A stretch of DNA of 64,000 bases, taken from contig CM059431.1 of NCBI GenBank assembly GCA_030390025.1, positions 148,616,001 through 148,680,000 on the forward strand, in the 5' to 3' direction. Made by a program: the position numbers and the translations under genes. Positions 962 through 62,074 of the stretch are shown piece by piece (the first letter of the stretch is position 1; each line of letters starts with the position of its first letter). Source of the DNA: Squalus acanthias (taxonomy: Eukaryota). The notes below the pieces were generated by a model, which was not told where the DNA came from, made no database searches, and saw only the letters and a program-made list of their open reading frames with translations.

Positions 962-1028
962 GGGGCCTAGAATTTCCGATAAAAAAAAGCTGTTATGTGC
1001 CGTCGCCCGAGAAGGAATTTTTCGGCCC
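962..1028. mobile_element. Tiny TIR element remnant (Harbinger-type MITE-like ends)
   Basis: gggcctagaatttcc ... ggaatttttcggccc imperfect inverted termini; similar ends at 2801/4362, 29001, 29329, 30070, 40403-40499. Confidence 0.4.
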
Positions 1029-1049
1029 TTTTGCTTATGTCATTTTTTT

Positions 1050-30846: not shown

Positions 30847-33527
30847 TTGCATCTTTGTTGATGCAAGAGTTGTTTAAAAAGACTGGCACATCCTCGCTAC
30901 TGTTGGTGTCCCTGGTAAGTCTCTGTATCCCGCTATGAATTCTATAAATCATGTTTATCTGTATTTCTCTCCTTGTCATTCTCCATCCCATGCGCACTGC
31001 TGTCGGCTATTGATTCTGAAGGTGATACGGTATTACCAAGATTCAATTGTTGTATAAGCAACTCAAGAAAAAATATTGCACGAGACTCTTTGCTTAACGA
31101 ATTTCGTTCTGCTATCTACACTGAACATTTGTAACAGATCAGAAGAATGTTGTCTTGGTTGAGGAGACTTTTCACTGAATGGCGAAAGGTCATCGACCTG
31201 AAACGATAACTCTCTCTCTCTCCACAGATGCTGCCTGACCTGCTGAGCATTTAAAACATTTCCTGCTCTATTTTCGATTTCCAGCATCCTCAGTAATTTG
31301 CTTTAGTTTTCAACGAATGGTCGGTATGGTTGCTCACACAGATTCACAGGAACAAATCCTGACAGATCACAAACTGATCTATAAATGTCTGAAATATCCG
31401 CGAATCATTGAGTTCCAGTAAGTGTCTCGTTTGCTCCCATCTCCAGTTCGTTCTACATTAGTGATACTGCTTCTGATGGTAAGAATAGGATTACACGGAT
31501 AATTTAAATTCTCGAAAAACGTTCAGTCAGCCATATTTCAATGCGTTTATTACCAATTTTGTTTTGAATTTACAAGTGTGTCCCGTGCCTGTCTGTCACA
31601 GTTCAGTGGATCTCTCAGTGAGAACCAGAGTGATTCTCTATTGCCTCCTGCTGTACTGCAGGATAATCAATCCCAGCTGATTGTAACTGAAGTACTGAGG
31701 ATAAGAAAATCATTTCATATTTTCTCGACTAATATTCTCTGCACAATTTGGAAACCAACAGGTGAAAAATACAAGGAAAAATCTCTTCCATTTGTGTTCA
31801 GATACTTTACGAAAGCCTTCGGAGGCTCGTTGACTGTGGGATGAGGCGCTTGATTACGATGCTAATACATGCATTTAGTGGGATATTACCTGGTCAATGA
31901 TAACTATATATTTTAATTCAGAATCCATTCCTTGCAATGTTATTTGTAAAATCTTCCGTTCAATGAGCCACAATTTGAGCCTTTCAACAAAACTATAGAA
32001 AGCTCAATCTTCAAAACATTTCTTGCAGCCCAGTTATCTTTATAACTACAGTGCCATTGTATTAATTATCTTAGCGCTTGCATATTACAGTCGTGCATTT
32101 TAAATATAATTGCCTGTAATTATTGCACACCAAGATTGCAGTTACTGTATTTTGCCGTTACATTTATTTTCAGTGCTAAATATAATGGATATTCTAACCA
32201 GGAGCAGGAATCCAAGCGGGATTTCCCCGTCCCTAACACAGGGGAAGGGAAGCGAATTGCACCGCTCCAAATGCTGACTGATCCCGGGAGACGAAGGCTT
32301 CCTCCGAGGTTCTGGTCCTTTGGGTCACTGGTACTTCGGGTGGTGCTTCTGTCTGGTGGGCTGAAGGTAGATCTACCATGTTATCTCTCATTAATCAAAC
32401 ATCTGTTACTTTCATGTTGTATTTATCCCCGTTTCATTTCTTAATTCCACAATACATTTCCGATTATTCTTACAATAAACCCTGTATTCAACTACACGGG
32501 CAATAGAATTAGATTATATCATTGAATGTCGCTGATGAGTTGCAGATTTCTCCCAGAGTTCCTTATATCTGCTGCTCTTGCTCCCAGCCTGATGTATAAT
32601 TTCCCTGTTTATTTCCCTTCCTCACAGTGAACTTAGTTACGATTGTGATCCTGTCTCGGGGAAAGTGCGGTCTCTCCAAATGTGTCACTCGCTACCTTGT
32701 GGCCATGGTAGCGGCGGATCTACTGGTCCTTCTCCTCGATCTGATATTGAGCCAGATTCCGATTGTATTTAGGGAACAGTTTCGTTTCCTGGAGTCCATC
32801 CCCGTGTGTAATATCCACGCCGTCCTGCTTTATGCAGCCACAGACTGTTCTGTCTGGTTCTGCGTCACTTTCACTTTTGATCGATTAGTGGCCATTTGTC
32901 GCCAGAAGCTGAAAACTAAATATTGCACCGAGAATGCGGCGGCTGTGGTTCTGGGAACAGTCACTGTGCTAAGCGGTTCAAAGGACATTTTCTGGTATTT
33001 TATGTTCACAGATCGGTTTCCGCTTGCGAACCTCCCCTGGTTTTGTGAGGTGACAATGGATGTTGTGTATTCATGGGTCTGGGGGACATCGAGCTCCTTC
33101 ATTATATTCTCACCCGGGGGTCACATTTATCGTGATTCTGCTGCTCAATGCTCTCACCGTCAGACACATTTTATTGTCCAGCAGAGCCCGCAGTAGACTC
33201 CGGGGTCCCAGCAGTAGGGAGAGTCCCAAAGACCCAGAGATGGAGAGCAGCAGGAAATCCATCATTTTACTGCTTGTTATCTCCGGCAATTTCATCCTGT
33301 TGTGGGCAGTGCTTATGATGTATTATATATGGATCCGGATGAGGGATTTGGGGTCTAAATCTGTTTATGCACCTTTTTATGTAAGGGAATTGGGATTGAT
33401 GTTGCAGATGCTGAGTTGCTGCACAAACACTGGGATTTATGCCGTGACACAGACTAAATTCAGAGAGCAGTTAAAGAATGTGGGGAAATGTCCCTTCACT
33501 CTTATTGTAAAATTCATTAAAGGATGA
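30847..33527 (+). pseudogene. Two-exon GPR139/GPR142-like 7TM GPCR pseudogene (exon 1 remnant to 30914; intron 30915-32627; exon 2 32628-33527)
   Basis: HILATVGVP-G|gtaagt ... ttcctcacag|TG AAC gives VP-V-NLVTIVILSRGKCGLSKCVTRYLVAM; TM3 FTFDRLVAIC; TM7 LSCCTNTGIY; in-frame TAA in exon 1 and two 1-bp deletions near 33088 and 33113. Confidence 0.88.
31179..31310 (+). mobile_element. Short Penelope-type terminal repeat remnant with decayed hammerhead motif (intronic)
   Basis: atggcga-a-aggtc-atc-gacct-gaaacg then ccacagatgctgcctgacctgctgag...atttccagcatc; related piece at 40498-40635. Confidence 0.6.
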
Positions 33528-33623: not shown

Positions 33624-33915
33624 AACAAAGATGGCGGCTCCGGTGACCCGCACAAAATTGCGGTCCAGGCGCCCGTCACAAATATTGCGGCCCCGGCGCC
33701 CTGCACAAAGCTGGCGGCCCCGGGTGCGCCGAAGAAAGTTGGCGTATCTGACGCCCCGCTGGAACAAAGATGGTTGCCGCGGCGCCCCTCACAATGATGG
33801 CGGAAACTGATCTACGCAAAAAATGGCGGCTCTGTCGCCCCTAACAAAGATGGCGGCTCAGACGCTCCGCATAAGGATGCTGGCCCTGAAGCCCCGAACA
33901 AAAATGGTGGCTCTC
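33624..33915 (+). repeat. ~27-bp degenerate tandem repeat carrying YY1-like AAGATGGCGGC motif in a CpG-rich patch
   Basis: acaaagatggcggc-like units at ~33625, 33652, 33678, 33705, 33733, 33764, 33791, 33817, 33844, 33871, 33898. Confidence 0.8.
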
Positions 33916-34079: not shown

Positions 34080-37000
34080 TAGGAGATGAGGAGGCCCGTC
34101 ACTAGAATAACGGGGGAGAAAGATGGCCGGGTAGAGAGAGCAAGACAGGGGAGAGAGTCCGGGGGAGAAAGACCGTGGGTGCCAGTCTGGAGGAGATATT
34201 TTGGGGGATACAGACCGGGGGATAAAGACAGGGGAAGACAGACTGTGGCGGGTGGGGCGGGGGGGGTGTCAGACCAGGGGAGACAGACCGGGGGAGACAG
34301 ATGGATGGAGACAGACGGGGTGACAGATGGGCGGAGACAGACGCTGAGAAAGGAGGTGTGGTAGAAAGACAGCATGACACATTCGGGGCAGACAGGTAAA
34401 TGCGTGACAGAGGAGACAGACGAGGGGAGGCAGAGAGAGAGACAGACAGATGGGGTGGGCGGGACAGACGGAGCGAACCAGACAGAGAGGAAGGTGGAAG
34501 AGAGAAATACGGCATGACAAAGTCAGGGAAGACAGGCAAGTGGGTGACAGAAAGAGTGAGACTGGGGGATTCAGACTGGGTGAGACAGAAGGGTGCAGAC
34601 CGACCAGGGGAGACAGATGGGGAGGGGAAGACAGACGGGGGGAGACAGATGTTGAGGAAGGTGGGCGTGGGGAGAAAGACAGCGTGACACAGTCGGGGCA
34701 GACAGGCGAAGAGGTGAGAGAGAGAGACAGACCAGGGGAGACAGAGAGACAAACCGGCAGACTGGGGAGACAGATGGTGAGAGACAGACGGAGCAGAAGG
34801 TGGGCGGGGGGGCGGGTGGCAAAGTCGCCGTGACACAGTCAGGGCAGACAGGCGAAGGTATGACAGACAGATACAGACTAGTGGAGAAAGACCGGGTAGG
34901 ACAGAGAGAGGATGACCGGGCGAGGCAGACCGGAGAAGACAGAGAGAGACAGAACGGGGGTTGACAGACTGGGGTGACAGACCGGGGGAGGAAGACCAGT
35001 GGAGACAGACCCGGAGAGACAGAGAGAGACAGATGAGGGTGGCGGGGCGATACAGACCAGGGGAGATAGTCCGGTGCAAGCAGAGAGAGACAGATAGCGG
35101 GGTGACAGATCGGGGGAGACAAACCAGAAAGGACAGTGTGAGTGACTGACAAGGCGGGGTTGGGGTGGGGACAGAGATAGAAGGAGACAGGGGGTGGGTT
35201 AGAGAGTGAACGAGAGTCCGGGTGGGGGGGAAACACATCGAGAAGGAGAGAGATGGATAGAGACAGACGGGGGAAGATAGATAGTGGGAGACAAATGGGC
35301 GTGACAAATGGGAGGTACACTGAGAGACAGACAAAAACGGGAGATACAGACTGTGGTGACAGAGGGAGAGATACAGACGGGGAGGCAAAGGGAGAGTGCT
35401 ATAGACGGGGGTAGACAGAGAGAGAGACAGACAATGGTAACAAATGGGGTGGAGACAGACGAGGAGGACAGGTCAGATGTTCAGAGATAGCAACGGGGAG
35501 AGAGATGGGGAGGAGAATGTCTGGTGGATTCAGAGAGAGATCAACAGGGGGACAGAGAGAGAGATACGGTGTGAGACAGAGAGAGAGATGAACAAGGGGA
35601 CAGAGAGAAACATAGTGTGGAAGATAGAGAGAGAGACGAACAAGGGGACAGAGATAGACATAGGGTGGGAGTTAGAGAGAGCGAGAACAAAAAGGGGACA
35701 GAGAGAGACATAGGGTGGTAGATAGAGAGAGAGAGAGATCAACAGGAGGAGAGAGAGAGACATAGCGTGGGAGAGAGAGAGAGACAAAGAGGGGAACAGA
35801 GAGCGAGACATACGGTGGGAGAGAGAGAGAGAGAGAGAGACCAACAGGGGGACAGAGTGAGACATACGGTGGGAGATAGAGAGTGACCAACAGCGGGACA
35901 GAGTGAGAAATAGGGTGGGAGATAGAGAGAGCGAGAGACCAACAGGGGGATAGAGTGAGACATGGGGTGGGAGATAGAGATAGAGAGAGAGAGACCAACA
36001 GGGGGACAGAGAGAGACATACGGTGGGAGATAGAGAGAGAGACCAACAGAGTGACAGAGAGACATATACGGTGGGAGATAGATAGATAGAGAGAGAGACC
36101 AACAGGGGGACAGAGAGAGACATATGGTGGGAGATAGAGAGAGAGATACCAACATGGGGACAGAGAGAGACATAGGGTGGGAGAGAGAGTGAAAGAGAGA
36201 CCAACAGGAGGACAGAGAGAGACATACGGTGGGAGTTAGAGAGAGAGCGACAAACAGGGGGACAGAGAGAGAAATACGGTGGGAGATAGAGAGAGAGAGA
36301 GATCAACACGGGGACAGAGAGAGACATAGTGTGAGAGAGAGAGAGTGAGAGAGAGACCAACAGGGGGAGAGAGAGCGACATACGGTGGGAGATAGAGAGC
36401 GAGAGAGAACAACAGGGGGACAGAGTGTGAAATAGGGTGAGAGTTAGAGAGAGAGAGAGAGACCAACAGGGGGACAGAGAGAGACATACGGTGGGAGAGA
36501 GAGAAAGAGAGAGAGACCAACATGGGGACAGAGAGAGACATACGGTGGGAGAGAGAGAGAGACCAACAGGGGGTAGAGAGAGCCATACGGTGGGAGATAG
36601 AGAGAGAGCCCAACAGGGGGACAGAGTGAGACATAGGGTGGGAGATAGAGAGAGAGAGAGAGACCAACAGGGGGACAGAGAGAGAGAGGCATAGGGTGGG
36701 AGATAGAGAGAGAGAGACCAACAGGGGGACAGAGTGAGACATATGGTGGGAGATAGACAGCGACAGACAATATGGGGAGACAGACCGATTGGGATGGAGA
36801 GGGCTGGAGAGAGCCTAGGTCGAGTCAGATTGTGGGTGACAAAGAGAGAGACAGATAGGGCAGACAGACGGGGGGAGCCAGACGAGGAGACAGAAAAAAT
36901 CAGTCGGATTTGACGCAGAGAGAGATAAACAGACAGGGCGAGACAAATGAGGTGAGACCGACGGTGGAGACCGACGGGGGAGACAGTCGGGAATTCCAGA

Positions 37001-37170
37001 CCAGTCAGGCCGAGAGCTCTGGGAAGACAAAGAGAGAGTCAGACGGTAGTGGGCAGACGGGGAGGATTGGCGCGGGAAGCAGTGTAAGAGAGGTTTATGG
37101 GGGAGTGGGAGCGGGAGACAAACCGGACTAGAATGACAGAGGGTGAGAGCCTGATTGAAAGAGGCGGGGG
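34080..37170. repeat. Purine-rich low-complexity region (GAGACAGAC) with a ~50-bp minisatellite at ~35530-36760
   Basis: Unit (ga)n-ccaacagggggacagagagagacatacggtgggagata repeated roughly 25 times. Confidence 0.92.
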
Positions 37171-41490: not shown

Positions 41491-41713
41491 CGTGTCGACC
41501 CCACACATTCCCAGACTCATTAAGCTCAATTTCACAACATGCCCTTGGCCTTCTGTGGGTTCACTCTCACGCTCCCTTTTTCCTGTTTTAAATTAATTTT
41601 ACAGGGTGTTCGAAGAGGAAGATTTGCAGTCAGGAAGCTCAATCTAAACATCAGGTCAAGATCTGACAGAGTCAATCGATTCATCGGGTCCTGAATATCT
41701 GCAGCCTTTGAAT

Positions 41714-42161
41714 ATGGAAGCAAAAAGCACCGCTCTCAGTGTGCAGAAACCGTGCACGTGTTTTGTGTTTGAACGAGGATTCAGCCGACCCACTGACCTG
41801 TCGAGACACAAGTGCAGTCACACTGGAGAGAGTCCGTTCAACTGCTCCGTTTGTAGGAATGGATTCACTCAGTCACCCACCCTGCTGACACACCAGCGGG
41901 TTCACACTGGTGAGCGGCCGTTCAGCTGCTCCGTGTGTGGGAAGGGATTCACTCAGTCACCCACACTGCTGACACACCAGCGGGTTCACACTGGAGAGGC
42001 CGTTCACCTTCTCCGTGTGCGGAAATGGATTCACTCAGTCATACAACTTGCTGAGACCCTAGCGAGTTCACACTGGGGAGAGGCCGTTCACCTATTCTGA
42101 ATGTGGGGAGGGGTTAATTTCTACATGCAGCCAGCTAACACAACAGCGAGTACACAACTGA
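41714..42161 (+). pseudogene. C2H2 zinc-finger pseudogene (~5 fingers, 2 intact)
   Basis: [27 protein letters not shown] repeats; finger 1 lacks 2nd Cys; frameshift at ~41995, stop at ~42060; acceptor ttttacag at 41604; AATAAA at 42307. Confidence 0.88.
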
Positions 42162-42944: not shown

Positions 42945-43837
42945 AAGAAGGACCTGCATCGGATTTCAGCCCAACTGGTCTGTGCCGGTGTTTATGCTCC
43001 ATTCAAGCCTCACCCATCACTCTTCTTCTAAACTAATTTGCACAATAAAATATTCCTTTCTCCCTTATGTGTTTATCGAGCTTCTCCTTAAATGCATCTA
43101 TGTTATTCGCCTCAACTACTCCCTGTGGTACCGAATTCCACATTCTCACCACTAGCAGAAAGTTTCTCCTGAATTCCCTATTGGATTTACTAATGACAAT
43201 CTTATATTGATGGCCTCTAGATTTTGACTTCCACAAGTGAAAACATTTTCATCAAGACCACCCTTTTTCATAATCTTAAATAGCTCTACCAGGTCACCCA
43301 TCAGCCTTCTCTTTTTTCAGGTGAAAAGAGCACAGCCTGTTCAGCCTTTCCTGATAAGTATATCCTCTCAGAACCAATATCATCCTTGCTAATATTTCTA
43401 CCACCTTCTCCAGTGCCTCTATTTCAAATGGAACAGCGGAGGCTGAGGGGAGACGTAATTGAGGTGTATATAATTATGAGGGCACTAGATAGAGTTGATA
43501 TGAAGGACCTATTTCCCTTAGCTGAAGTGTCAATACCAAGGGGGCCTGGATTTAACCTAATTGGTCGGAAGTTTAGGGGGGAGTTAAGGAGAAATGTTTT
43601 CACCCAGATAATGGTGGGGGTCTGGACCTCAATGTGTGAAAGAGTGGTAGAGGCAGAGAACCCCATCACTTTTGAAAAGTACTTGGATATGCATTTGAAG
43701 CGCCATAAACTACAAGGCTACGGACCAAGTGTTGGAAAGTTCAATTAAGGTGGATAGCTCTTTGTCGGCAGCACGGACACGATGGGCCGAATGGCCTCCT
43801 TCTTTGCTGTAAATTTCTATGCTTCTGTGATTCTATG
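42945..43837. mobile_element. Two CR1 3' fragments joined back-to-back (minus 42945-~43420; plus ~43425-43837)
   Basis: Minus: RGHQYKI...VRMWNSVP; plus: EQRRLRGDVIEVY...FTQIMVGVW, tail ttctgtgattctatga. Confidence 0.82.
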
Positions 43838-44150
43838 ACTGTTGAGGGAGCCTTACCCTGAATCTAACTCGTGCTATGCCTGCCCCGGGTGTATTTGATG
43901 GGACAGTGCAGACGGAGCAGTAATATAGAGAGACACCAGCAGAGGGGGCAGGGAGAGGTATTTAACTGAGTGAGCAGTGATACATAGAGACAACATCAGA
44001 GGGAAATAGATCAAGTTGAGACTGGGCACTGTGATACAGAGAGACCCCAGCAGAGGGAGATAGATAAAGGTGAGACTGAGTGCTGTGCTACGGAGATATA
44101 ATTGAGAGGTCGCACAACACCAGGTTATAGTCCAACAGTTTTATTTGAAA

Positions 44151-44188
44151 TCACAAGCTTTCGGAGCTATCGCTCCTTCCTCAGGTGA
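44151..44188 (-). ncRNA. Minimal type I hammerhead ribozyme (3' pseudo-LTR)
   Basis: RNA UCAC-CUGAGGA-A-GGAGC-GAUA-GCUCC-GAA-AGCU-U-GUGA: CUGAnGA/GAA core, 5-bp stem II, palindromic AGCU stem III, UCAC/GUGA stem I. Confidence 0.85.
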
Positions 44189-44520
44189 AGTAAATTGGAT
44201 ACAGAATCGCCAGAGCATATATAGATGGAAAAAAAAGCATGTGTACTTTACAATTGCAGACCAATAAATTAAATCATCCTGACTATCTGCCGAGGTGTGA
44301 TAAAGTTAATTAAGTCAGCCAGGAAGGTACCACATCAAAAGACATAGCAAGATACAACTGAGACAATGAGGTGTAGTCGCAGGGGTTCCAACGTGTCAAA
44401 AGCTGCCGCCTGTATGTAAAACGAAAAGCTTTAAAAAAAATTACTTTTTTACTGGGAAAATTTTTACTTTTTTACTGGGAATCACATCTGTGAACAAGCT
44501 AACGACGACTTGAGTCCGGA

Positions 44521-47199
44521 TCACGTCATGTATCGTGACATAAACCCAAGATCCCGATTGAGACCGTCTTCATGAGTGCGGAACTTGGCTATCAGTTTCT
44601 GCTCGATGATTTTGCGTTGTCGTGTGTTTCTAAGGTTGCCTTGGAGAACGCTTACCCGCAGATCCGAGGCTGAATGTCCTTGACTGCTGAAGTGTTCTCC
44701 GACTGGGAGGTAACAATCCTGCCTGGCGATTGTTGCGCGGTGCTCGTTCATACGTTGTCTCAGTGTCTGCATGGTCTCGCCGATGTACCATGCCGCGGTG
44801 CATTCTTTCCTGCAACGTATGAGGTAGACAACGTTGGCCGAGTCACATGAGTATGTACCATGTACCTGGTGGGTAGTGTCCTCACGTGTGATGGTGGTAT
44901 CTGTGTTGATGATCTGGCATGTCTTGCAGAGTTTGCCATGGCAGGGTTGTGTGGTGTCGTGGTCGCTGTTATCCTGAAAGCTGGGTAATTTGCTGCGAAC
45001 GATGGTACTTCTGAGGTTAGGCGGCTGTTTGAAGGCAAGTAGTGGAGGCGTGGGGATGGCCTTAGCGAGGTGTTTGTCGTCATCGATGACATGTTGAAGG
45101 CTGCGAAGAACATGTCGTAGTTTCTCCGCTCCGGGGAAGTACTGGACGACGTAGGGTACCCTGTTGGTTGTGTCCCGTGTTTGCCTTCTGAGGAGGTCTA
45201 TGCGATTTTTCGCTGTGGCCCGTCGGAACTGTCGATCGATGAGTCGAGCGTCATATCCCGTTCTTACGAGGGCGTTTTTCAGCGTCCGTAGGTGTCCATC
45301 GCGTTCCTCCTCGTCTGAGCAGATCCTGTGTATTCGCAGGGCTTGTCCATAGGGGATGGCTTCTTTAACATGGTTAGGGTGGAAGCTGGAGAAGTGGAGC
45401 ATCGTGAGGTTGTCCGTGGGCTTGCGGTAGAGTGAAGTGCTGAGGTGTCCGTCTTTGATGGAGATTCGTGTGTCCAGGAATGAGACCGATTCTGAGGAGT
45501 AGTCCATGGTGAGTTTGATGGTGGGATGGAACTTGTTTATGTTATCGTGTAGTCTTTTCAGTGATCCTTCGCCATGGGTCCAAAGGAAGAAAATGTCGTC
45601 GATGTATCTGGTGTACAGCGTTGGCTGGAGGTCCTGTGCAGCGAAGAAGTCTTGCTCGAACTTGTGCATGAAGATGTTGGCGTATTGGGGTGCGAATTTG
45701 GTCCCCATGGCTGTTCCGTGTGTTTGGGTAAAAAAATGGTTGTCGAAGGTGAAGACATTGTGGTCAAGGATGAAGCGGATGAGTTGTAGGATGGCGTCTG
45801 GAGATTGGCTGTTGTTGATGTTGAGTACTGAGGCTGTTGCAGCGATGCCGTCATCGTGGGGGATACTGGAGTAGAGTGCCGATACGTCCATCGTGGCAAG
45901 GAGTGTTCCTGGTTCAACTGGTCCGTGGGTGCTGAGTTTCTGTAAGAAGTCTGTAGTGTCGCGACAGAAGCTGGGGGTTCCCTGTACGATGGGTTTCAGA
46001 ATGCCCTCGACGTATCCAGAGAGGTTCTCACACAGGGTTCCATTGCCTGATACGATAGGACGTCCGGGTGTGTTGGCTTTGTGTATCTTTGGGAGGCAGT
46101 AGAAGTCTCCCACGCGGGGAGTACGTGGGATGAGAGCGCGTAGGATGTTTTGAAGGTCTGGATCGAAGGTCTTGATCAGTCTATTGAGTTGGCGGGTGTG
46201 TTCTTTGGTCGGATCTGCGGGTAGCTGTCTGTAGTGTTCCTGGTTGTCCAGTTGTCGGTATGCTTCTTTACAATAGTCCGTTCTGTTCTGTATGACGATG
46301 GCTCCTCCTTTGTCCGCTGGTTTGATGACAATGTTGCGGTTGGTCTTGAGAGCGTGGATGGCGTTGCGTTGTGCTCGGGTGACATTCTGGACTGTCTTGT
46401 GAGTGCGGCTGATGAATCTGGCGTTGATGCATTTCCTGACAGCTTGAGCATACATGTCAAGCTTGGGGCAGCGACCCTCCGGAGGGGTCCAGTTTGACTC
46501 TTTTTTCTTCGGTTGCTGCACTGCGAGTCCCTCTGTCTGCTGTTCTGGATCATTGATTGTCTCATTGGGTTTGTTGCTGACATCTTGGGATTTGTGGAAG
46601 TATTCCCGGAGCCTCATTCTCCTGATGAATTCCTCCGTGTCTGCCGCGAGACCGATGGGGTCCATTTTGGTGGTTGGGCAGAACTTGAGCCCTAGGGCGA
46701 GAACTTCGATTTCGTCTGGTTGAAGGGTATGGTCGGACAAGTTGACGATGGACTTCCCTGTGGTTGCAGCCGTGGTACCGGGGGAGGCTTGGTTGCTGCT
46801 GGTGGTGATGCCGAGTTTCTCAAGCTTCCTGTTCTTGATGCGCATGTAGGCAGCGTAGTTCCGTTGCCTCGTCTGTTTGGTGGTGTCTCGTAACTGGTCT
46901 GCTGTGTCCTGAGCACAGGCTGAGAGCATGGACTCTATCTTGGTTTCGAGGTTGTGGCGTTTGCTGTAGAGCTGGTGTACGAGATGGTTGAGGAGTGTGC
47001 GAGAGGTACGACGGCAGAGTCTCTCAGCGTAGTCTGTGTTGTATGTCGACTTGAGTGGGTTCGTGATCTGTAGTCCTTTCGGGATCTTGTCTGCTTTCTT
47101 GCATCTCTGTAGATACTTGATGTCGGTGTCGATATGCGCGATCTTCTTGGCGATTCTCTCCACTTTGAGCCGGCAGTTTGTGGTGTCGATAGTGGTCAT
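44521..47199 (-). CDS. Penelope-like reverse transcriptase plus GIY-YIG endonuclease (892 aa from first ATG; open frame extends to 47271)
   Basis: IKPADKGGA, FYCLPKIHK..PGRPIVS, MDVSALY, GTAMGTKFAP, RYIDDIF, FLD, YRKPT; C-terminal C..C..C, VVYLIRC...YIGET...RMNEH...EHF; no stops. Confidence 0.96.
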   Translation of the reverse strand: MTTIDTTNCRLKVERIAKKIAHIDTDIKYLQRCKKADKIPKGLQITNPLKSTYNTDYAERLCRRTSRTLLNHLVHQLYSKRHNLETKIESMLSACAQDTADQLRDTTKQTRQRNYAAYMRIKNRKLEKLGITTSSNQASPGTTAATTGKSIVNLSDHTLQPDEIEVLALGLKFCPTTKMDPIGLAADTEEFIRRMRLREYFHKSQDVSNKPNETINDPEQQTEGLAVQQPKKKESNWTPPEGRCPKLDMYAQAVRKCINARFISRTHKTVQNVTRAQRNAIHALKTNRNIVIKPADKGGAIVIQNRTDYCKEAYRQLDNQEHYRQLPADPTKEHTRQLNRLIKTFDPDLQNILRALIPRTPRVGDFYCLPKIHKANTPGRPIVSGNGTLCENLSGYVEGILKPIVQGTPSFCRDTTDFLQKLSTHGPVEPGTLLATMDVSALYSSIPHDDGIAATASVLNINNSQSPDAILQLIRFILDHNVFTFDNHFFTQTHGTAMGTKFAPQYANIFMHKFEQDFFAAQDLQPTLYTRYIDDIFFLWTHGEGSLKRLHDNINKFHPTIKLTMDYSSESVSFLDTRISIKDGHLSTSLYRKPTDNLTMLHFSSFHPNHVKEAIPYGQALRIHRICSDEEERDGHLRTLKNALVRTGYDARLIDRQFRRATAKNRIDLLRRQTRDTTNRVPYVVQYFPGAEKLRHVLRSLQHVIDDDKHLAKAIPTPPLLAFKQPPNLRSTIVRSKLPSFQDNSDHDTTQPCHGKLCKTCQIINTDTTITREDTTHQVHGTYSCDSANVVYLIRCRKECTAAWYIGETMQTLRQRMNEHRATIARQDCYLPVGEHFSSQGHSASDLRVSVLQGNLRNTRQRKIIEQKLIAKFRTHEDGLNRDLGFMSRYMT

Positions 47200-47286
47200 G
47201 ATGCGGAGATGCCGGTGTTGGACTGGGGTGGACAAAATTGAGAGGTCGCACAACACCAGGTTATAGTCCAACAGTTTTATTTGAAA

Positions 47287-47324
47287 TCACAAGCTTTCGG
47301 AGCTATCGCTCCTTCCTCAGGTGA
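47287..47324 (-). ncRNA. Minimal type I hammerhead ribozyme (5' pseudo-LTR)
   Basis: Identical to 44151-44188. Confidence 0.85.
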
Positions 47325-47925
47325 AGTAAATTGGATACAGAATCGCCAGAGCATATATAGATGGAAAAAAAAGCATGTGTACTTTACAATTGCAGACCAA
47401 TAAATTAAATCATCCTGACTATCTGCCGAGGTGTGATAAAGTTAATTAAGTCAGCCAGGAAGGTACCACATCAAAAGACATAGCAAGATACAACTGAGAC
47501 AATGAGGTGTAGTCGCAGGGGTTCCAACGTGTCAAAAGCTGCCGTCTGTATGTAAAACGAAAAGCTTTAAAAAAAAATTACTTTTTTACTGGGAAAATTT
47601 TTACTTTTTTACTGGGAATCACATCTGTGAACAAGCTAACGACGACTTGAGTCCGGATCACGTCATGTATCGTGACATAAACCCAAGATCCCGATTGAGA
47701 CCGTCTTCATGAGTGCGGAACTTGGCTATCAGTTTCTGCTCGATGATTTTGCGTTGTCGTGTGTTTCTAAGGTTGCCTTGGAGAACGCTTACCCGCAAAT
47801 CCGAGGCTGAATGTCCTTGACTGCTGAAGTGTTCCCCGACTGGGAGGTATACAGAGATATACCAGCAGAGGGAGATAGAGATAGGTGAAACTGAGCACTG
47901 TGAAACAGAAAGACACCAGCAGAGA

Positions 47926-48473
47926 CACCTGTAGTATTGTGTACAGTTTTGGTCTCCTTTCCTCATGATGGATATACTTGCCTTAGAGGGAGTGCAACGA
48001 AGATTCACCAGACTGGTTCCTGGGATGGGTGCATTGACCTATGAGGAACGATTGAGTAGACTAGGACTATATTTCGTAGAGATTATTGGAATGAGAGGTG
48101 ATCTCATAAAACATGCAACATTCATATAGCGCTTGACAGGGCATTGCTGGGAGGATGTTTCCCCTGGCTGTGGAGACCAGAACCAAAGGTCACAGTCTCA
48201 GAATAAGGGGTCAGCCATTTAGGACTGATATGAGACATTTCTTCACTCAGAGGGTGGTGAATCTTTGGAATTCTCTCCCCTAGAGAGCTGTGGAGGCTCA
48301 GTCGTTGAGTATATCCAATACAGTGAGCGATAGATTTTTGAATATTAGGGGAATCAAGGGATATGGGGATAGTGCAGGAAAGGAGATGAGGTACGAGATC
48401 AGCCATGATCTTATGGAATGGTGGAGCAGGCTCGAAGGGCCAAATGACCGACTCCTGCTATTATTTCTTATGT
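47926..48473 (+). mobile_element. CR1 3' fragment
   Basis: gtattgtgtacagttttggtctcc...gatcagccatgatctt...atttcttatgtt; its tail is mirrored at 17624-17688. Confidence 0.88.
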
Positions 48474-49285: not shown

Positions 49286-51441
49286 TCCCGCCTCGCTCTC
49301 TCTCTCGCTCTGAGTGTCCAGCTCTCTCTCCCCGCATCGCTCTCTCTCACCCCCAGTCTCTTTCTCTATATAATACATCCAGTCTCTCTTTCTCACCCCC
49401 AGTCTCTCTCTCTCCCAGTCACCCTCTATCAACCCCAGTCTCTCTCTCCCCCAGTCTCTCTCTCTCAACCACTCTCTCTCTCTCTCCCCCTGTTTCGCTC
49501 TCCCCCGTCTCTCTCTCTCAACCACTCTCTCTCTTCACCAGTCTCTCACTCTCTCCAGTATTTCTCGCACTGCCCCGTCTCACTCCCCGCCTGTCTGCCA
49601 CTCACTCCCCAGTCAATCTCTCCCGCTGTTACTCTCTCTCCTGTCTCCCTCTCCCCCAGTCTCTCACTCTCTCCCCCGTCTCTCTCTCTCTCTTTCTTGT
49701 CACTCTCCCTCCCCCAGCCTCTCTCGCTCTCTCCCAGTCATCCACTCTCTCCAGTCTCTCTCTCCGCAGTCTCTCTCTAACCCCTGTCTGCTCTCTCTCC
49801 AGTCCCTCATCTCTTCACCCAGTTTATCTCTTCTCTCTCCAGTCTCTCTCTCTCTCTTTCCCCCAGTCTCTCTCAGCCCCAGTCTCTCTCCCTCTTCCCC
49901 AATATCGCTCTCTACCCAAGAATCTCACTCTCTCTAGTCTATCTCTCTCCCCAGGCTCTCACTCGCCGAATCTATCTCTCTCCCAAGTCTCACACTCTCT
50001 CCCCAGTACCTCCATCTCCCCCAGTCACTCTCTCTCTCTCCCCCAGTCTCTCTCTCTCTCCCACATTCTCTTTCTCTCTCCCCAGTATATTTCTCTCCCC
50101 CAGTCTCTCTTTCACTCCGTCAGATTCTCTCTCTCTCTCCAGTCTCTCTCTCTCTCCCCAATCTCTCTCAGCCTAGTCACTCTCTCGCCCAATCTCTCCC
50201 TCTCCTCCAGTCTCTCTCTCTCTCCAGTCTCTCTCTCTCCACTCTCTCTCCCACCCCCGGAATCTCTCTATCTCCAGTCTCTCTCTCCCCAGTCACCCTG
50301 TCTCACCAGTCTCACTCACCCCAATCTCCCGCTCTCTGCAGCCTCTCTCTCTCTCTGTCTCTCACCCCAGTCTCTCTCTCCCCCAATCTCTCTCTCACTG
50401 GTCTTTCTCACCCCAGTCTATCTCTCTCCCCTGACCCTCACTCTCTCCAGTCTCTCTCCCTTCCCCAATCTCTCTCTCTCCCCAGTCCATCCAACTCCCC
50501 CAGTCACTCTCTCTCTCCCGTCTCTCTCCAGCCCCCGTCTCCTCCATCTCCAGTCCCTCTCACTCCCCAATCTCTCTCAATCTCCAGTCTCTCTCTCTCT
50601 CTCCGACAGTCTCTCTGACCCCCAGTCTCTCTCTCTCCCCCAGTCTGTACTATCGGCCCCAGTCTCTCTCTCTTTCTCTCTCTCTCTCTCTCCTGTCTCT
50701 CTCTCTCTCTCCCCAGTCACTCACTCTCTCCAGTCTCTCTCTAGTCCCGTCTTCTCTCTCTCCAGTCTCTCTCTCTCCCCAGTCTCTCTCTCTCGCCGAA
50801 TCTCTCTCTCTCCCTAGTCTCTCACTCTCTCCCCAGTGCCTCCAATTCCTCCAGTTTCTCTATCTCTTCTCCAGTCTCTCTCTCTCTCAACACCCCTCTC
50901 CCTCTCCCCCAGTTTCGCTCTCCCCCATCTCTCTCTCTCAACCACACTCTCTCTTCACCAGTCTCTAACTCTCTCCAGTCTTTCTCTCTCTGCCCCAGTC
51001 TCACACCCCGCCTGTCTATCACTCACTCCCCAGTCACTCTCTCCCCCCGTCACTCTCTCTCCTGTCTCCCTTCCCCCAGTCTCTCACTCTCTCCCCCGTC
51101 TCTCTCTCTTTCTTGTCACTCTCCCACCCCCAGCCTCTCTCGCTCTCTCCCAGTCATTTACTCTCTCCAGTCTCTCTCTCCGCAGTCTCTCTATAACCCC
51201 CGTCTGCTCTCTCTCCAGTCCCTCATCTCTTCACCCAGTTTCTCTCTCTCACTCTCCAGTCTCTCTCACTCTCTTTCCCCCAGTCTCTCTCAGCCCCAGT
51301 CTCTCTCCCTCTCTCTTCCCAATTTATATCTCTACCCCAGAATCTCAGGCACTTCAGTCTATCTCTCTCCCCAGTCTCACTCTCGCCGAATCTCTCTCTC
51401 TCCCAAGACTCACACTCACTCCCCAGTACCTCCATCTCCAC

Positions 51442-51478
<37 letters not shown>

Positions 51479-51729
51479 AGTCTCTCTCTCTCTCTCCCAC
51501 ATTATATTTCTCTCACCCATTCTCTCTTTCACTCCGCCAGATTCTCTCTCTCTCTCCAGTCTCTCTCTCCTCCCAGTCTCTCTCTCCCCAATCTCTCTTT
51601 CCTAGTCTCTCTCTCGCCCAATCTCTCACTCTCCTCCAGTCCCTCTCTCTGCAGTCTCTCTCTCTCTCCACTCTCTCTCCCACCCCGGAGTCTCTCTATC
51701 TCCAGTCTCACTCTCCCCAATCTCCCGCT

Positions 51730-52730
51730 AAGTAAGTGGGCAGAGATTTGGCAGATGGAATACAACACTGGAAAGTGTGAGGTGATGCACTTTGGCAGGA
51801 AAAATCCTAGAGCAATTTATTATCTTAATGGCAAGAAACTGGAGAGTACTGAAGTGCAAAGGGATCTGGGGGTCCTGGTGCACGAAACTCAAAAGGTTAG
51901 TATGCAGGTGCAGCAAGTGATTAAGAAGGCAAATGGAATGTTGGCTTTCATTGCTAGGGGGATAGAATATAAAAACAGGGAGGTATTGCTTCAGTTGTAC
52001 AAGGTATTGGTGAGACCGCACCTGGAATACTGCATACAGTTTTGGTGTCCTTACTTAAGGAAAGACATCCTTGCTCTCGAGGCAGTGCAAAAAAGGTTCA
52101 CTCGGTTAATCCCGGGGATGAGGGGGTGGTCATATGAGGAGAGGTTGGGTAGATTGGGACTCTACTCATTGGAGTTCAGAAGAATGAGAGGCGATCTTAT
52201 TGAAACATAAAAGATTGTGAAGGGGTTGGATCGGGTGGATGCGGGGAGGATGTTCCCGATGACGGGTGAGACTAGAACTAGGGGACATAGTCTTAGAATA
52301 AGGGGCTGCTCTTTCAAAACTGAGATGAGGAGGAACTACTTCACTCAGAGGGTGGTAGGTCCATGGAATATGCTGCCACAAAAAGCTGTAGAAGCTACAA
52401 CATTAATTAAATTTAAAACAGAAATAGACAGTTTCCTAGAAGTAAAGGGCATTAAGGGTTACGGGGAGCGGGCAGGAATTTGGACATGAGTCTAGGTTCG
52501 GATCGGTCATGGCCCTGTGGGTAGTGGAGCGGGCCCAGGGACTGTGTAGCCTGATTCTGCTCCTATTTCGTGTGTGCAATTCTGTTAGATGCAGGAGATG
52601 GTTCTGTGATAGAGAGTAGATTGGCGGTTAGGATCAGATCAGCCATGATCTTATTGAATGGCGGAGCAGGCTCGAGGGGCCAATTGGCCTACTCCTGCTC
52701 CTATTTCTTATGTTCTTATGTTCTTATGTT
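51730..52730 (+). mobile_element. Young 5'-truncated CR1 LINE with duplicated 3' UTR
   Basis: ORF2 C-terminus open except one stop (52208); two successive 3' UTR modules; (cttatgtt)3 tail. Confidence 0.93.
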
Positions 52731-54559
52731 CTCTCTGCAGTCTCTCTCCCCAGTCTCTCTCTCCCTCAATCTCTCTCTCACTAGTCTTTCTCACCCCCAG
52801 TCTCTCTCTCTCCCCCTGACCCTCACTCTCTCCAGTCTCTGTCCCTCCCCCAATCTCTCTCTCTCCCCAGTCCATCTCTCTCCCCCAGTCACTCTCTCAC
52901 TCCCGTCTCTCTCTAGCCCCCGTCTCCTCCATCTCCAGTCCCTCTCACTCCCCAGTCTCTCTCAATCTCCAGTCTCTCTCTCTCTCCCACAGTCTCTCTG
53001 ACCCCCAGTCTCTATATCTCCCCCAGTCTGTACTATCGGCCCCAGACTCTCTCTCTCTCTCTCTCCAGTCTCTCTCTCTCTCCCCAATCACTCTCTCTCC
53101 AGTCTCTCTCTAGCACCCGTCTTCTCTCTCCCCAGTCTCTCTCTCTCCCCAGTATCTCTCTCCCGCCGAATCTCTCTCTCTCACCCTAATCTCTCACTCT
53201 CTCCCAAGTGTCTCCAATTCACCCAGTTTCTCTCTCTCTTCTCCAGTCTCTCTCTCTCTCTCCCCCAGGCCCTCTCTCTCCAGTCTTTCTATCTCCGAGG
53301 TCTCTCTCTCTCTCCCAGTCGCTCTCTCGACAGTAACTCTATCTCCAGTTTCTCTCTCCGCCAGTCTCTCTCTCTATCCCCAGTCGCTATCTCTCTCCCC
53401 AGACTCTATCTCTTTCCCCCAGTCTCTCTCTATCCTCAGTCTAACTATCTCTCCTCCACTATCTCTCCTCCAGTCTCTCTCTCTCCTCCAGTCTCTCTCT
53501 CTCCATTTTCTCTCTCCCCCAGTTTCCCTCACTCTCCCCCAGTCTCTCTCTGCCCCGCTCTCTCTCTCCAATGTATCCCTTCCCAGTACCTCAATCTCAT
53601 CCCTGTCTCTCTCCCTCCCCAATCTCTCTCTCTCCCTCAATCTCTCTCTCTCCCCAGTCTATTTCTCTCCCCCAGTCACTATCTCTCTCCAGTCTCTCTC
53701 TCTATCCCCAGTCTCTCTCTAAACCCCATCTCCTCTCTCTCCAGTCCATCTCTCTCCCCCAGTCTCTCTCTCCCCAGTCTCTCTCTCCCCTGTCCGTCTC
53801 TATGTCCTGTCTCTCTCTCCCAAGTCTCTCTCGCTCCCCCGTCTCAATCTCTCCCCCCGTCTCTCTCTCTCTCTCTCCGGTCACTCTCTCTCTCCCCCCG
53901 TCTCACTCTCTCCCCATTCTCTCTTTTTTCCCTTTCTCTCTCTCTCCCAGTCTCTCTCTCCCCAATCACTCTTCAACTCCAGTTTCTCTCTCTGCCAGTC
54001 TCTCTCTCTCTCCCCCCAGTCTCTCTCTCTCCCCAGTATCTCTCTCTCTCTCTCTCTCTCTCTCTCCCCCGTCTCTCTCTCTCTCTCCCCCAGTCTCACT
54101 ATCTCCCCTCCACTCTCTCTCTCTCCTCCAATCTTTCTCGCTCCCCAGTCTCTCTCTCTCCCCCATTCTCTCGCTATCTCCAGTCTCTCTCTCCACAGTC
54201 TCCATGTCTCAACAATCTCAGTCTCCCCAGTCTCTCACTCTTCTGTCTCTTTATCGCACCCCGTCTCTCTCTCTCTCTCTCCAGTCTCTCTTACATCCAT
54301 TCTCTCTCTCCCCCTTCTCCCTGCCACCCCCAGTTTCACTCTCACCAGTCTCTCTCTCCCCAGTCTCTTAATCTCAGCCAGTCTCTCTCTCTCTCCAGTC
54401 TTACTCACCTCCAGTCTCTCTCTCTCCCGTCTCTCTCACTCTCTGGTCTCTCTCTATCCCCCACTCTTTCTCGCTCGCCGCCAATCGCTTTCTCTCTCTC
54501 CTCTAGTCTCTCTCTCTTTGCCGGACTCTCTCTCCCCCCCATTCTCTCTCTCTCTCTCA

Positions 54560-54905
54560 AATAGTTATTTGCCTTAGATGGAGTATCTAGAACTAGGGCA
54601 CATAGTCTCAGGATAAGGGGTAGGCCATTTAAGACTCAGATGAGGAGGAATTTCATAACTCAGAGGAGTGTGGTGAATGTTTGGAATTCTCTGCCCCATA
54701 CGGCTGTGAAAGCTGAGTTTTGAATATATTCAAGACTGGGTTAGATAGATTTTTGGACTCTCGGGGAAACAAGTGATTTGGAGATCGGGCGGGCTAGTGG
54801 AATTGAGGTGTATGATCAGCCATGGTCTCATTGAATGGCGGAGCAGTCTCGAGGTGCCGTAAGGCCTTCTCCAGTTCTTATTTCTTATTTTCTTATCTTC
54901 TTATT
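54560..54905 (+). mobile_element. CR1 3' fragment within CT array (copy 1 of 3)
   Basis: ggagtatctagaactagggcacatagtctcaggataagggg...gatcagccatgg. Confidence 0.85.
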
Positions 54906-55611
54906 ATCTTTCATTCTCCCGAGTCTCTCTCTCTCTCTATCTCTCAGTCTCTCTCTCTCCCTCAGTCTCTCTCTATCTCCAGTCTCTCTCTCTCACAATC
55001 GATCTCTAACGAGTCTCACTCTCCCCCAGTCTCTCTCTCGGCCCCAGTCTCTCCAAATCTCTCCCAGTTTCTCTCCAACCCCCTGTCTTTCTTTCTCAAC
55101 ATTCTCTCTCTCTCCCCAGGCTCTTCCTCTCTCCAGTCTCTCTCTCTCCCCAGTCTCTCTCACTTCACCAGTCTGTAACTCTCTCCAGTCTCTCTCTCCC
55201 CAGGCTCTCTCTCTCCCCAGTCTCTCTCTCACCTCAGTCCCTCTCTCTCCCCAATTATTTCCTCCTCTCCAGTCTCTCTCTCTGCGACAGTCTCTCTCTG
55301 CCCTCCCCATTCTCTCTCTCCGCAGTCTCTCTCTCACTCCCGATTCTCTCTCTCCCCAGTCTCTCTCTCTCCAGTCTCTCTCTCTCCCACAATCTCTCTC
55401 TCTCTCCCCATTCTCTCTCTCCCCAGTCTAACTCTTTCTATCCCCTCCCTCTCTTTCTCCAGTCTCTCTCTAGCTCTGCCCCAGTCTCCCCCTCATCCTC
55501 AGTTTCTCTCTCTCTGCTCCAGTATCTCTCTCTCGCCCGCATTTGCTCTCTCACTCTCTCCCCCTGCCTCTCTCTCTGTTTCAGACTCTCTCTCTCCCAC
55601 AGTCTCGCTAT

Positions 55612-58600
55612 CTGTACCAGTCGTTTCCATTGGCTGGAGTGTCTCGAACTGGGGCACATAGTCTCAAAATAAGGTGTAGGCCATTTAAGACACAGCTTAG
55701 GAGGAATTTCATAAGAGAGAGTAGATACATAGATACATAGAACAGTACAGCACAGTACAGGCCCTTCGGCACTCGATGTTGTGCCGAGCATTGTCCGAGA
55801 CCAAGATCAAGCTATCACACTCCCTATCACTCTGGTGTGCTCATGTGCTTGTCCAATAACCGCTTGAAAGTTCCTAAAGTGTCCGACTCCACTATCACAG
55901 CAGGCAGTCCATTCCACACCCCAACCACTCTCTGAGTAAAGAATCTACCTCGGACATCCCTTCTATATCTCCCCCCATGCACCTTATAGTTATGCCCCCT
56001 TGTAACAGCTGCCTCTACCCGAGGAAATAGTCTCTGAACATCAACTCTATCTATCCCCCTCATCATCTTATAAACCTCTATTAAGTCGCCTCTCATCCTC
56101 CTCCGCTCTAAAGAGAAAAGCCCCAACTCCCTCAATCTTTCCTCATAAGACCTCCCCCCCAAACCAGGCAGCATCCTGGTAAATCTCCTTTACACTCTTT
56201 CAAATGCTTCCACGTCCTTCCTATAGTGAGGTGACCAGAACTGCACACAATATTCCAAATGTGGTCTCACCAAGGTCCTGTACAGTTGCAGCATAACCTC
56301 ACGGTTCTTAAACTCAAACCCTCTGTTAATAAACGCCAACACACCATAGGCCTTCTTTACTGCTCTATCCACTTGAGTGGCAAACTTCAGAGATCTGTGG
56401 ATATGAACCCCCAGATCCCTCTGCTCCTCCACGTTCCTCAGAACCCTGCCGTTGACCCTGTAATCCTTATTCAAATTTGCCCTACCAAAATGAATCACCT
56501 CGCACTTATCAGGGTTAAATTCCATCTGCCATTTTTCGGCCCAGCTCTGCATCCTATCACTGTCTCTTTGCAGCCTACAACTGCCCTCCACCTCATCCAC
56601 TACTCCACCAATCTTGGTGTCATCAGCAAATTTACTGATCCACCCTTCAGTCCCCTCCTCCAAGTCATTGATAAAAATCACAAACAGCAGAGGACCCAGC
56701 ACCGACCCCTGTGGCACACCGCTGGTAACTGGTCTCCAGTCCGAAAATGTTCCACCCACCACCACCCTCTGCCTTCTAAGAGATAGCCAGTTACTTATCC
56801 AATCGGCCAAATTTCCCTCTATCCCACAACTCCTTACTTTCTTCATGAGCCGACATGGTGAACCTTATCAAACGCCTTACTAAAATCCATGTATACGACA
56901 TCAACTGCTCTACCTTCATCTACACACTTAGTTACCTCCTCAAAGAATTCAATCAAATTTGTTAGGCAAGACTTACCCTTCACGAATCCGTGTTGACTAT
57001 CCCTGATTAAGTTGCCCCTTTCCAAATGGTCATAAATCCTATCCCTCAGGACCTTTTCCATTATCTTACCAACCACCGAAGTAAGACTAACCGGTCTATA
57101 ATTACCAGGGTCATTCCTATTTCCTTTCTTGAAGAGAGGAACAACATTCGCCACTCACCAGTCCTCTGGCACCATCCCCGTGGACAGTGAGGACCCAAAG
57201 ATCAAAGCCAGATGCTCTGCAATCTCCTCCCTTGCCTCCCAAAGAATCCTAGGATATATCCCATATGGCCCAGGGGACTTATCGACCCTCAGGTTCTTCA
57301 AAATTGCTAAAACATCTTCCCTCAGAACATCTACCACCTCCAGCCTATCCACCTTTATCACACTCTCATCCTCAAGAACATGGCCCCTCTCCTCGGTGAA
57401 CACTGACGAAAAGTATTCATTCATCACCTCTCCTATCTCTTCTGACTCCATGCACAAGTTCCCACTACTGTCCTTGACCGGCCCTACCCTCACCCTGGTC
57501 ATTCTTTTATTTCTCACATAAGAGTAAAAAGCCTTGGTGTTTTTCTTGATCCGACCCGCCAAGGACTTCTCATGCCCCCTCCTAGCTCTCCTAAGCTCTT
57601 TTTTTAGCTCATTCCTTGCTAACTTGTACCCCTCAATCGACCAAACTGAACCTTGTTTTCTCATCCTTACATACGCTTCCTTTTTCCTCTTGACTAGACA
57701 TTCAACCTCTTTTGTGAACCATGGTTCTCTCACTTGGCCATTTCCTCCCTGCCTGACAGGGACATAACTATCAAGGACACGCAGTAATAGCTCCATGAAA
57801 AAGCTCCACTTTTCCTTTGTGCCTTTCCCTGATAGTTTCTGTTCCCATCTTATACTCCCTAATTCTTGCCTAATCGCATCATAATTACCCCTCCCCCAAT
57901 TATAAACCCTGCCCTGCCGTATGGCCCTATCCCTCTCCATTGCAATAGTGAAAGTTACCGAATTGTGGTCACTATCTCCAAAGTGCTCTCCCACATACAA
58001 ATCAAACACTTGGCCCGGTTCATTACCCAGTACCAAATCCAACGTGGCCCCAGCTCTTGTCGGCCTATCCACATATTGTGTCAGGAAACCCTCCTGCACA
58101 CACTGTGCAAAAACTATCCCATCCGAACTGTTTGACCTATAAAGGTTCCAATCAATATTTGGAAAGTTGAAGTCACCCATGACAACTACTCTGTGACCTC
58201 CACACCTATTCATAATCTGCTTTGCAATTTCTTCCTCCACATCTTTATTACTATTTGGGGGCCTGTAGAAAACTCCTAACAACGTGACCGCTCCTTTCCT
58301 ATTTCTAACTTCAGCCCATATTACCTCAGACGGCAGATCCCCCTCGAACTGCCTTTCTGCCGCTGTTAAACTATCCTTGATTAACAATGCTACTCCTCCA
58401 CCTTTCTTACCAACTTCCCTACTCTTACTGAGTTATGTGAACATTTTGAATTCTCTGCCCCAGAAGGCTGTGAATGCTGAGTTTTGAGTTAGATGGATTG
58501 TTGGTCTCTAGGGGAAACAAGAGAATTGCTGATCGGGCGGGAATGTGGAGTTGAGATGTATGAACAGCCATGTTCTCATTGAATGGCGGTGCAGTCTCGA

Positions 58601-58653
58601 GGGACCTTATGGCCTACTCCTGTTCTTATTTATTATTTTCCCATGTTCTTATG
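55612..58653 (+). mobile_element. CR1 3' fragment (copy 2 of 3), split into 55612-~55722 and ~58430-58653 by a younger CR1
   Basis: ...aggaggaatttcataagagagagt | insertion | agttatgtgaacattttgaattctctgccccag... Confidence 0.85.
55723..58429 (-). mobile_element. Young 2.7-kb CR1 LINE (most of ORF2: endonuclease plus RT) with few lesions
   Basis: YRPPN, GDFNFP, SDHNSV, KSPGP, NYRPVSLTS, VPQGSVLGP, FADDTK; two stops (57155, 56190) and one frameshift (~56845). Confidence 0.96.
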
Positions 58654-61972: not shown

Positions 61973-62043
61973 ATGATCTCTCTCTCTTCAAGTCTCTATC
62001 TCTCTCTCCTAGTCTCTCTCTCTCTCCAGTCTCTCTCTCTCTC

Positions 62044-62074
<31 letters not shown>

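Follow-up and report, generated by a model that had tools for sequence, protein, structure and literature searches.

Neptune and Poseidon, two clades of Penelope-like retroelements, are widespread in vertebrates (bioRxiv 10.64898/2026.07.22.740005). Neptune elements (Arkhipova 2006, via PMC8557442) encode a reverse transcriptase (RT) followed by a C-terminal GIY-YIG endonuclease (EN), with a CX2-5CxxC zinc-finger-like linker between the two, which marks Neptune and Nematis, a CCHH motif in the EN and a DKG motif. They also form partial tandems bounded by pseudo-long terminal repeats (pseudo-LTRs), carry hammerhead motifs and an optional tail of 30-40 bp, and insert into simple repeats (PMC8557442). 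The same structural features are found in an element at positions 44101-47849, minus strand, of a 64,000-nucleotide stretch of the Squalus acanthias genome (assembly GCA_030390025.1, contig CM059431.1, positions 148,616,001 to 148,680,000 of the forward strand; the whole stretch is called the window, and its first letter is position 1). One difference lies in the target, which is a di- or trinucleotide repeat for Neptune and a 54-bp satellite unit here. In all likelihood we have here a Neptune-type Penelope-like retroelement from an abundant shark family, in a copy that is complete in structure and has probably been resident for a long time. All of its anatomy is already described for the Penelope-like class, and it is one copy of an abundant family. 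An earlier reading of the letters alone (the sequence-only reading) had proposed a Penelope-like element of a vertebrate family, with RT and GIY-YIG in a partial tandem, and this is what we find, namely an EN-containing (EN+) element of sharks; the hammerheads, the tail and the Neptune-type linker are parts that were absent from that account.

It is useful to compare the element with three further systems. Firstly, PAc, the Poseidon element of Anolis carolinensis (PMC11167929), is also a vertebrate EN+ element with a hammerhead near the junction of pseudo-LTR and open reading frame (ORF), and both PAc and the shark family have two types of ends, separated by an AC-rich tail. The two differ in as much as Poseidon has no zinc linker, while the shark element does, and the ORF of PAc begins inside the hammerhead, with reverse transcription starting within the ORF, whereas in the shark element the distance from the start of the upstream hammerhead core to the ATG is 121 nt, and the tail extends up to the start codon. 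Secondly, the minimal hammerheads of metazoan Penelope-like elements (PMC4209133) occur one per repeat about 3 kb apart, as they do here, and share an extra base after position 9, a G10.1-C11.1 pair, a palindromic 15.2-16.2 and a short helix I; the shark hammerheads, which are predicted from sequence, show no essential difference from the set described there. Thirdly, the active Neptune subfamilies of Fundulus killifish (PMC12602865) belong to a vertebrate and are abundant, as in our case. PAc is active in vitro and the killifish activity was inferred from a 3- to 4-fold accumulation in hybrids, whereas the shark element is known here from its sequence. Polymorphic Penelope and Neptune insertions have in addition been tabulated in anoles (PMC7561263). 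In the literature searched, supplements and Repbase aside, we came across neither an account of this shark family nor a Neptune that had been reconstituted.

The extent of the element is given by its repeats and by its target site. The two pseudo-LTRs, 44101-44712 (612 bp) and 47237-47849 (613 bp), both on the minus strand, are 99.35% identical (blastn) and differ by three substitutions (44409/47545, 44661/47798 and 44698/47835) and one indel inside an A-run, in agreement with the ~99% identical direct repeats of ~612 bp that had been noticed before. On both sides lies the same short degenerate satellite with a 54-bp unit, recognised by its tandem-repeat structure (left part 43920-44100, right part 47850-47926), one site of which is the insertion target, and the element is flanked by a 12-bp target-site duplication (TSD; 44089-44100 and 47850-47861) in which 11 of 12 bases are identical. 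The mismatch is G/A, and the other 54-bp units have A at that position; the length and the single mismatch had been read correctly from the letters, but the change may have gone either way, the proposed CpG decay being one of the two. The element (3749 bp) and one copy of the TSD make up 3761 bp. If these are cut out, the satellite continues with its next unit at 44139, precisely 54 bp, or one period, beyond 44085. This exact phase shows that the duplication is genuine and does not simply follow from the periodicity of the satellite. The TSD defines the ends within the satellite as had been claimed, except that base 44100 can be assigned to the pseudo-LTR or to the TSD, so the left end is uncertain by 1 nt. 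The upstream pseudo-LTR (47237-47849) is a 5'-truncated second unit (blastn, tblastn) that contains the last 63 codons of the ORF (63 aa, 100%, tblastn), the 3' untranslated region and a hammerhead; by analogy with other Penelope-like elements it is the presumed promoter. The downstream pseudo-LTR is the element's own 3' end, without a tail, and an AATAAA begins within it at 44145. No further copy of the element was found in the 64-kb window.

The single ORF (44521-47199, minus strand) encodes 892 aa when counted from the ATG at 47199, within a frame of 921 aa from stop to stop (44521-47286), and according to the frame list, Pfam and the protein model it consists of an N-terminal helical region, RT, thumb, zinc linker and GIY-YIG domain. 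Among the 55 frames of at least 150 aa in the window, no other is as long. The next two (696 and 685 aa) arise in (TC)-rich arrays, which contain no stop in these frames, and of the other retroelement remains the longest, at 425 aa, is part of the endonuclease of a broken long interspersed nuclear element (LINE). The intact RT/GIY-YIG ORF of the sequence-only reading, which it took to be the only long uninterrupted one among decayed elements, is thereby borne out. A homolog search returned 228 proteins, and the counts given here are based on the 120 listed. The RT core is matched by Pfam RVT_1 at aa 427-557 (45529-45921, minus strand, E 1.5e-8), with D438, GxxMG at 495-499 and YIDD at 532-535; a DKG motif lies upstream at aa 296-298, and N-terminal GxKF motifs are present. 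The CX4CxxC linker at aa 753-761 (44917-44943, minus strand) was recognised by its motif and by conservation, each cysteine being kept in 107-110 of the 110-111 homologs that cover it. The endonuclease at aa 790-881 (44557-44832, minus strand) matches PF01541 with 22.8 bits (cut-off 22.6) when the C-terminal 149 aa alone are searched; no GIY-YIG match appeared in Pfam with the whole 892-aa protein as the query. Its residues Y792, Y805-I-G807, R816, E866 and N881 are in place, the Y, Y, G, R, E and N being conserved among homologs, and so are C796, C800, H836 and H842, which we tentatively assign to the CCHH motif. The predicted protein model has a mean predicted local distance difference test score (pLDDT) of 88.6, and in a fold search of the PDB ranks 1-5 are telomerase RTs (E 4e-9 to 1.5e-7), with low TM-scores of about 0.3, while a sequence search of the PDB gave no close relative and one weak RT match (E 0.89). 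At columns conserved in at least 70% of homologs the element agrees at 171 of 188, and all catalytic and metal-binding residues are kept; of the 17 deviations, 14 are also seen in most of the shark homologs that cover the column, two (444 and 731) are unshared, and the remaining one lies outside the coverage of these homologs.

The domain layout of the homologs, scored by regular expressions, follows the same pattern. A C-terminal EN together with the CX2-5CxxC linker is found in 91 of the 120, and the others have a C-terminal EN without a linker match (6), no EN match (18) or no YxDD match (5); an N-terminal EN occurs in 0 of the 120. The linker is also present in 49 of the 54 scorable related metagenome loci. 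By the criteria of PMC8557442, in which Neptune was found to be paraphyletic, Penelope/Poseidon is excluded because the zinc linker is present, and Naiad/Chlamys, which has an N-terminal EN and no canonical hammerhead, is excluded because the EN of our element, which also has hammerheads, is C-terminal. The Hydra clade has no CCHH, DKT in place of DKG and a CxCX5C linker, and is excluded because DKG and the CCHH-type residues are present; the linker of our element is CX4CxxC. Judged by motifs, and not by a reference tree, Neptune appears to be the best-fitting clade. The closest named relatives among the matches listed are sharks, i.e. Heptranchias (92%, in a homolog cluster of 54 members), Scyliorhinus (85%) and Mustelus (82%). 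An RT tree was built from 38 rows, 37 of which we picked from 157 proteins that are unnamed or named by host only; in it the element groups with Heptranchias (100/97) within a shark clade (97/93). Horizontal transfer was considered and is unneeded, since this tree sorts the shark sequences by genus. Two RefSeq models of Heptranchias (P0013 and P0128) include pieces of the family ORF, in an epn2 isoform and in a divergent protein kinase domain 2Ab isoform, which is either exonisation or mis-annotation. Among viral contigs, 450 pattern matches contained no relative.

Two identical minimal hammerheads are predicted on the minus strand, one of type I in the upstream copy (47287-47324, predicted cut after 47291) and one in the downstream copy (44151-44188, predicted cut after 44155), and the predicted unit from cut to cut is 3136 nt. 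Each has a 4-bp helix I, an extra core base after position 9, a 5-bp helix II and a palindromic 2-nt helix III region. The descriptor used was our own, made after the motif had been seen and PMC4209133 consulted. Over both strands of the 64 kb it matches at these two places only, it matches 1 of 3000 Markov controls, and in the 78 related metagenome loci it matches 18 in the sense direction (20 matches) and 0 in the antisense direction. Helix II has a probability of 0.92-1.00 in the folds. Such motifs in fish Neptune elements probably act as dimers and have low activity in vitro (PMC4209133). In a compact relative (L001:21-3577), two identical minimal hammerheads, which lie in repeats of 138 bp, flank an open frame of 1053 codons, and in L077/L078 a relative forms a near-perfect tandem array of 4.3 kb.

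The family can also be followed in public sequencing runs. Twenty-two runs were listed, 20 of them with all or part of the stretch, from 9 studies, and four, X2, X7, X14 (organism C) and X21 (organism G), were compared over 43400-47236; summed contig depth does not equal copy number. The element is very abundant in X2, where the 3' end of the ORF is 28-fold deeper than the 5' end, a bias that 5' truncation would give. Joints between tail and repeat occur in X2 at depths of 288-3422 (12 listed of 124 rows), and therefore the head-to-tail form belongs to the family; X2 may, however, have the same source as the assembly. The left flank is represented in X2 by a piece covering 43816-44046, without differences and at depth 8. 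In X14 the element has a depth of 4-172 as against 0.28 for the single-copy flank; this is possibly shark DNA that is present at low coverage within a different sample, and it is not counted as evidence of a relative. X21 consists of 48 partial reads only. Could the partial tandem, or the whole insertion, be an assembly artefact of collapsed repeat copies? We consider this scarcely credible. It is true that the junction 44100/44101 is bridged by no piece, filled or empty, among 24 listed of 42,302 pieces in the four runs. However, the insertion restores the satellite phase exactly and has a 12-bp duplication, the window contains no N, and the tandem joint is found in X2, which is the read-level test that the sequence-only reading had named. 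The repeats also lie more than 2 kb apart in 14 of the 78 related loci, many of which touch contig ends and are possibly collapsed tandems.

A substantial step in depth marks the 37-nt C/A-rich tail (47200-47236, minus strand), which lies between the end of the pseudo-LTR and the ATG and was delimited by this step, by joints and by composition. It is present once in the element and absent at the downstream end, 44101. The summed depth of the tail bin compared with the next bin gives 19x in X2, 228x in X7 and 9x in X14, other flanks are joined to 47197-47199 in 6 of the 15 joints listed (of 139), and the raw reads of X21 have loose ends at 47198 and at 44105, with 3 reads each. Judging from these patterns, the tail behaves as the known optional Penelope-like tail of 30-40 bp. 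Two start sites of reverse transcription bound the tail of the anole Poseidon (PMC11167929), and by analogy the tail may be a second start window in the shark element. A role of the tail as a hammerhead switch was rejected, as the probability of helix I, which is window-dependent, stays at or below 0.12 with or without the tail when at least 60 nt of upstream sequence are included; in prediction, the tail pairs with the 3' end of the repeat in 11 of 12 tail-containing folds. An intron in the 5' untranslated region is not indicated, with no intron-type joint among the 15 listed of 139 and no convincing donor/acceptor pair in a motif scan. Close to the element, at 43771-43812, an abundant retroposon-like repeat has its 3' end, which runs out into short tandem repeats, and in contigs of X2 and X7 tailed family ends (47197-47199) adjoin copies of this repeat end. 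It may be a favoured target, and it was seen only because the repeat lay in the compared stretch.

The age of the copy is the point at which our view departs most from the earlier one, that the insertion is recent and possibly active. The ORF and repeat have an observed/expected CpG ratio of 0.88, compared with 0.44 for the remainder of the window and 0.33-0.54 for four LINE pieces nearby; the copy thus looks young in sequence beside its neighbours, and present activity is possible. The divergence between the repeats is 0.25% per copy (95% range 0.05-0.72%), which, at a rate of 7e-10 per base per generation taken from another shark (PMC10587355), corresponds to 3.5 million generations (0.7-10 million); taking the most favourable ends lowers this to 0.36 million. 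The pseudo-LTRs are no guaranteed clock, because differences can be inherited from the donor. The TSD, on the other hand, cannot be inherited from the donor, so its mismatch postdates the insertion or is an error. Differences from the family in the runs (40 rows listed of 120; 30 within the ORF, 15 synonymous and 15 non-synonymous) mostly have shares of 0.5-0.9 of depth, marking subfamilies. Five ORF sites differ from at least 98% of the X2 family depth, three of them synonymous and the others at aa 444 and 461, and by comparison with the family these seem to be particular to this copy. At residue 444, which lies in RT motif A, the copy has Ser, as against Thr in all 5 shark homologs and in 95 of the 120 homologs as a whole, and it also differs there from about 100% of the depth in each of the four runs. 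The base at 44698 is found in a single repeat, the family letter making up 99.8% of the X2 depth, whereas the variant 44511/47648 is present in both repeats, yet has 0.02% of the X2 family depth, which suggests that both repeats stem from one template lineage. Selection could not be read from the repeats: the differences that fall in coding sequence are synonymous in 2 of 2 cases, which is too small a number, and each of them seems to be confined to a single repeat. From these comparisons, the copy has probably gathered about 0.2-0.4% of private change and would be hundreds of thousands to millions of generations old. With four substitutions in the repeats and TSD, the private changes and ~10^5.5-10^7 generations, the recency and activity suggested by the sequence-only reading are overstated.

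Nevertheless, it could be argued that the insertion is very recent and still polymorphic in a family that transposes today, the differences being inherited from the donor or errors of assembly. This is possible, but we consider it unlikely. The open ORF and the CpG ratio would agree with it, and so would the closest listed contig pieces, which differ by 0-3 bases per 100-536. In X7 the closest pieces (19-23; pieces 17, 18 and 24, with 5-8 per 100, were excluded) differ at 5 of 1208 bases, and in X14 (pieces 1-6 and 8; piece 7 was excluded) at 19 of 2399, with piece 8 at 1 of 495. The divergence of 0.25% is moreover close to the diversity of 0.2% in the epaulette shark (PMC10587355), and the element occurs in runs guessed to be RNA. 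However, no listed run is recorded as RNA, X7 being RNA only by guess. The mismatch in the TSD, the base private to one repeat at 44698 and residue 444 also speak against a very recent event, and an inactive ORF could still be open at 0.25-0.4% change with a probability of about 0.2-0.4, under rough assumptions.

The opposite view, that the copy looks intact but was dead on arrival or has since been disabled and cannot act as a master, we hold to be similarly doubtful. It gains from the missing tail at 44101, since the priming sequence in the anole lies beyond the end of the pseudo-LTR (PMC11167929), and from the private non-synonymous changes at aa 444 and 461. Against this, no catalytic or metal-binding residue is lost, Ser444 occurs in 4 of 120 homologs, position 461 is variable among them, and the upstream junction keeps the tail, which a circular RNA would reunite with the 3' end. 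The structurally complete and probably long-resident Neptune-type copy remains our preferred explanation, even though several observations count against it. The CX4CxxC linker is not unique to Neptune, since Nematis also has a (reduced) linker, and the RT tree has no named Neptune, Nematis, Poseidon or Naiad references. Rfam, searched with 43800-48100 at E up to 5, gave no match, and helix I is unstable in monomer folds, with a probability of at most 0.12 at the upstream lengths mentioned above. The age is based on 3-4 substitutions and the mutation rate of another shark, and differences inherited from the donor or due to assembly errors would make the copy younger.

As for the mechanism, we consider target-primed reverse transcription with internal initiation, as for PAc, most likely. 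Transcription would run from the upstream pseudo-LTR through the hammerhead, tail, ORF and downstream pseudo-LTR, and the 892-aa protein would bind its own RNA. The GIY-YIG domain, steered to simple repeats by the zinc linker, would cut both target strands 12 nt apart, and the telomerase-like RT would prime on the cut and start inside the RNA at one of two sites that bracket the 37-nt tail. A start at the end of the pseudo-LTR would give a tail-less copy, as here, and a start beside the ATG would give tailed copies; early stops in most events would leave abundant 3' fragments. In this event the whole unit and a further 613 nt would have been copied, resulting in the partial tandem, with the second repeat supplied by a hammerhead-derived 3136-nt circle, by template jumping or by a tandem donor transcript. 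For this element the promoter, cleavage, priming and origin of the second repeat are inferred by analogy. A more daring proposal is that the family still moves in living sharks and multiplies via a 3136-nt RNA circle cut by a dimer of the two minimal hammerheads, with reverse transcription from either edge of the tail running for more than one round, so that both repeats come from one template. We regard this as rather improbable. The rare variant shared by both repeats fits it, and a hammerhead-made circle has been proposed as a template (PMC4209133). On the other hand, hammerhead mutants of the anole PAc still inserted in vitro (PMC11167929), and this also weighs against a circle within our preferred scheme, because cleavage was not needed for insertion there.

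The rest of the window contains several other features. At 32600-33527 (plus strand) there is a rhodopsin-family seven-transmembrane receptor gene in two overlapping frames (Pfam 7tm_1), which is either a frameshifted pseudogene or an assembly error. Just downstream of it, in a GC-rich context, lie two 27-bp tandem arrays (33625-33723 and 33819-33914), whose unit presumably holds a YY1-like motif. A C2H2 zinc-finger array with an 84-bp period (41648-42100, plus strand) is apparently broken by a frameshift, and a fragment at 27907-28431 (plus strand) has a weak DDE_Tnp_4 match; we take the latter to be the remnant of a Harbinger/PIF-like transposase. Broken LINE ORF2 pieces are found at 56190-58432 (minus), 20235-21167 (plus), 23540-25009 (plus) and 30226-30873 (minus). 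They are CpG-depleted, three have endonuclease and RT matches, and we assume them to be CR1/L2-like. Repeat arrays occupy 49379-64000, 34100-37040 and 14834-15818; they include a 67-bp satellite of 14.7 copies, and the long (TC)-rich arrays of 15-17-bp and 52-bp units have stop-free frames of up to 696 aa that are not genes.

Telomerase RT has the Penelope-like elements as its sister group, and in the literature we found only one of these, a Poseidon, is reported as reconstituted. The suggestion that the shark copy would be suitable for reconstitution is reasonable, although it is not unique in this respect, the anole Poseidon having already been reconstituted (PMC11167929). A cleanly bounded Neptune copy with hammerheads, tail and TSD is a convenient natural substrate for biochemistry, and two questions could be addressed with it, namely the role of the zinc linker in targeting and the making of the second repeat. 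It also gives reason for caution, in that 99% identical repeats in sharks need not mean a recent insertion. If the family were indeed mobile and replicated through the circle, biochemists would for the first time have a Neptune to work with, and the element would allow a direct test of the circle model of 2014 and of targeting by the zinc linker.

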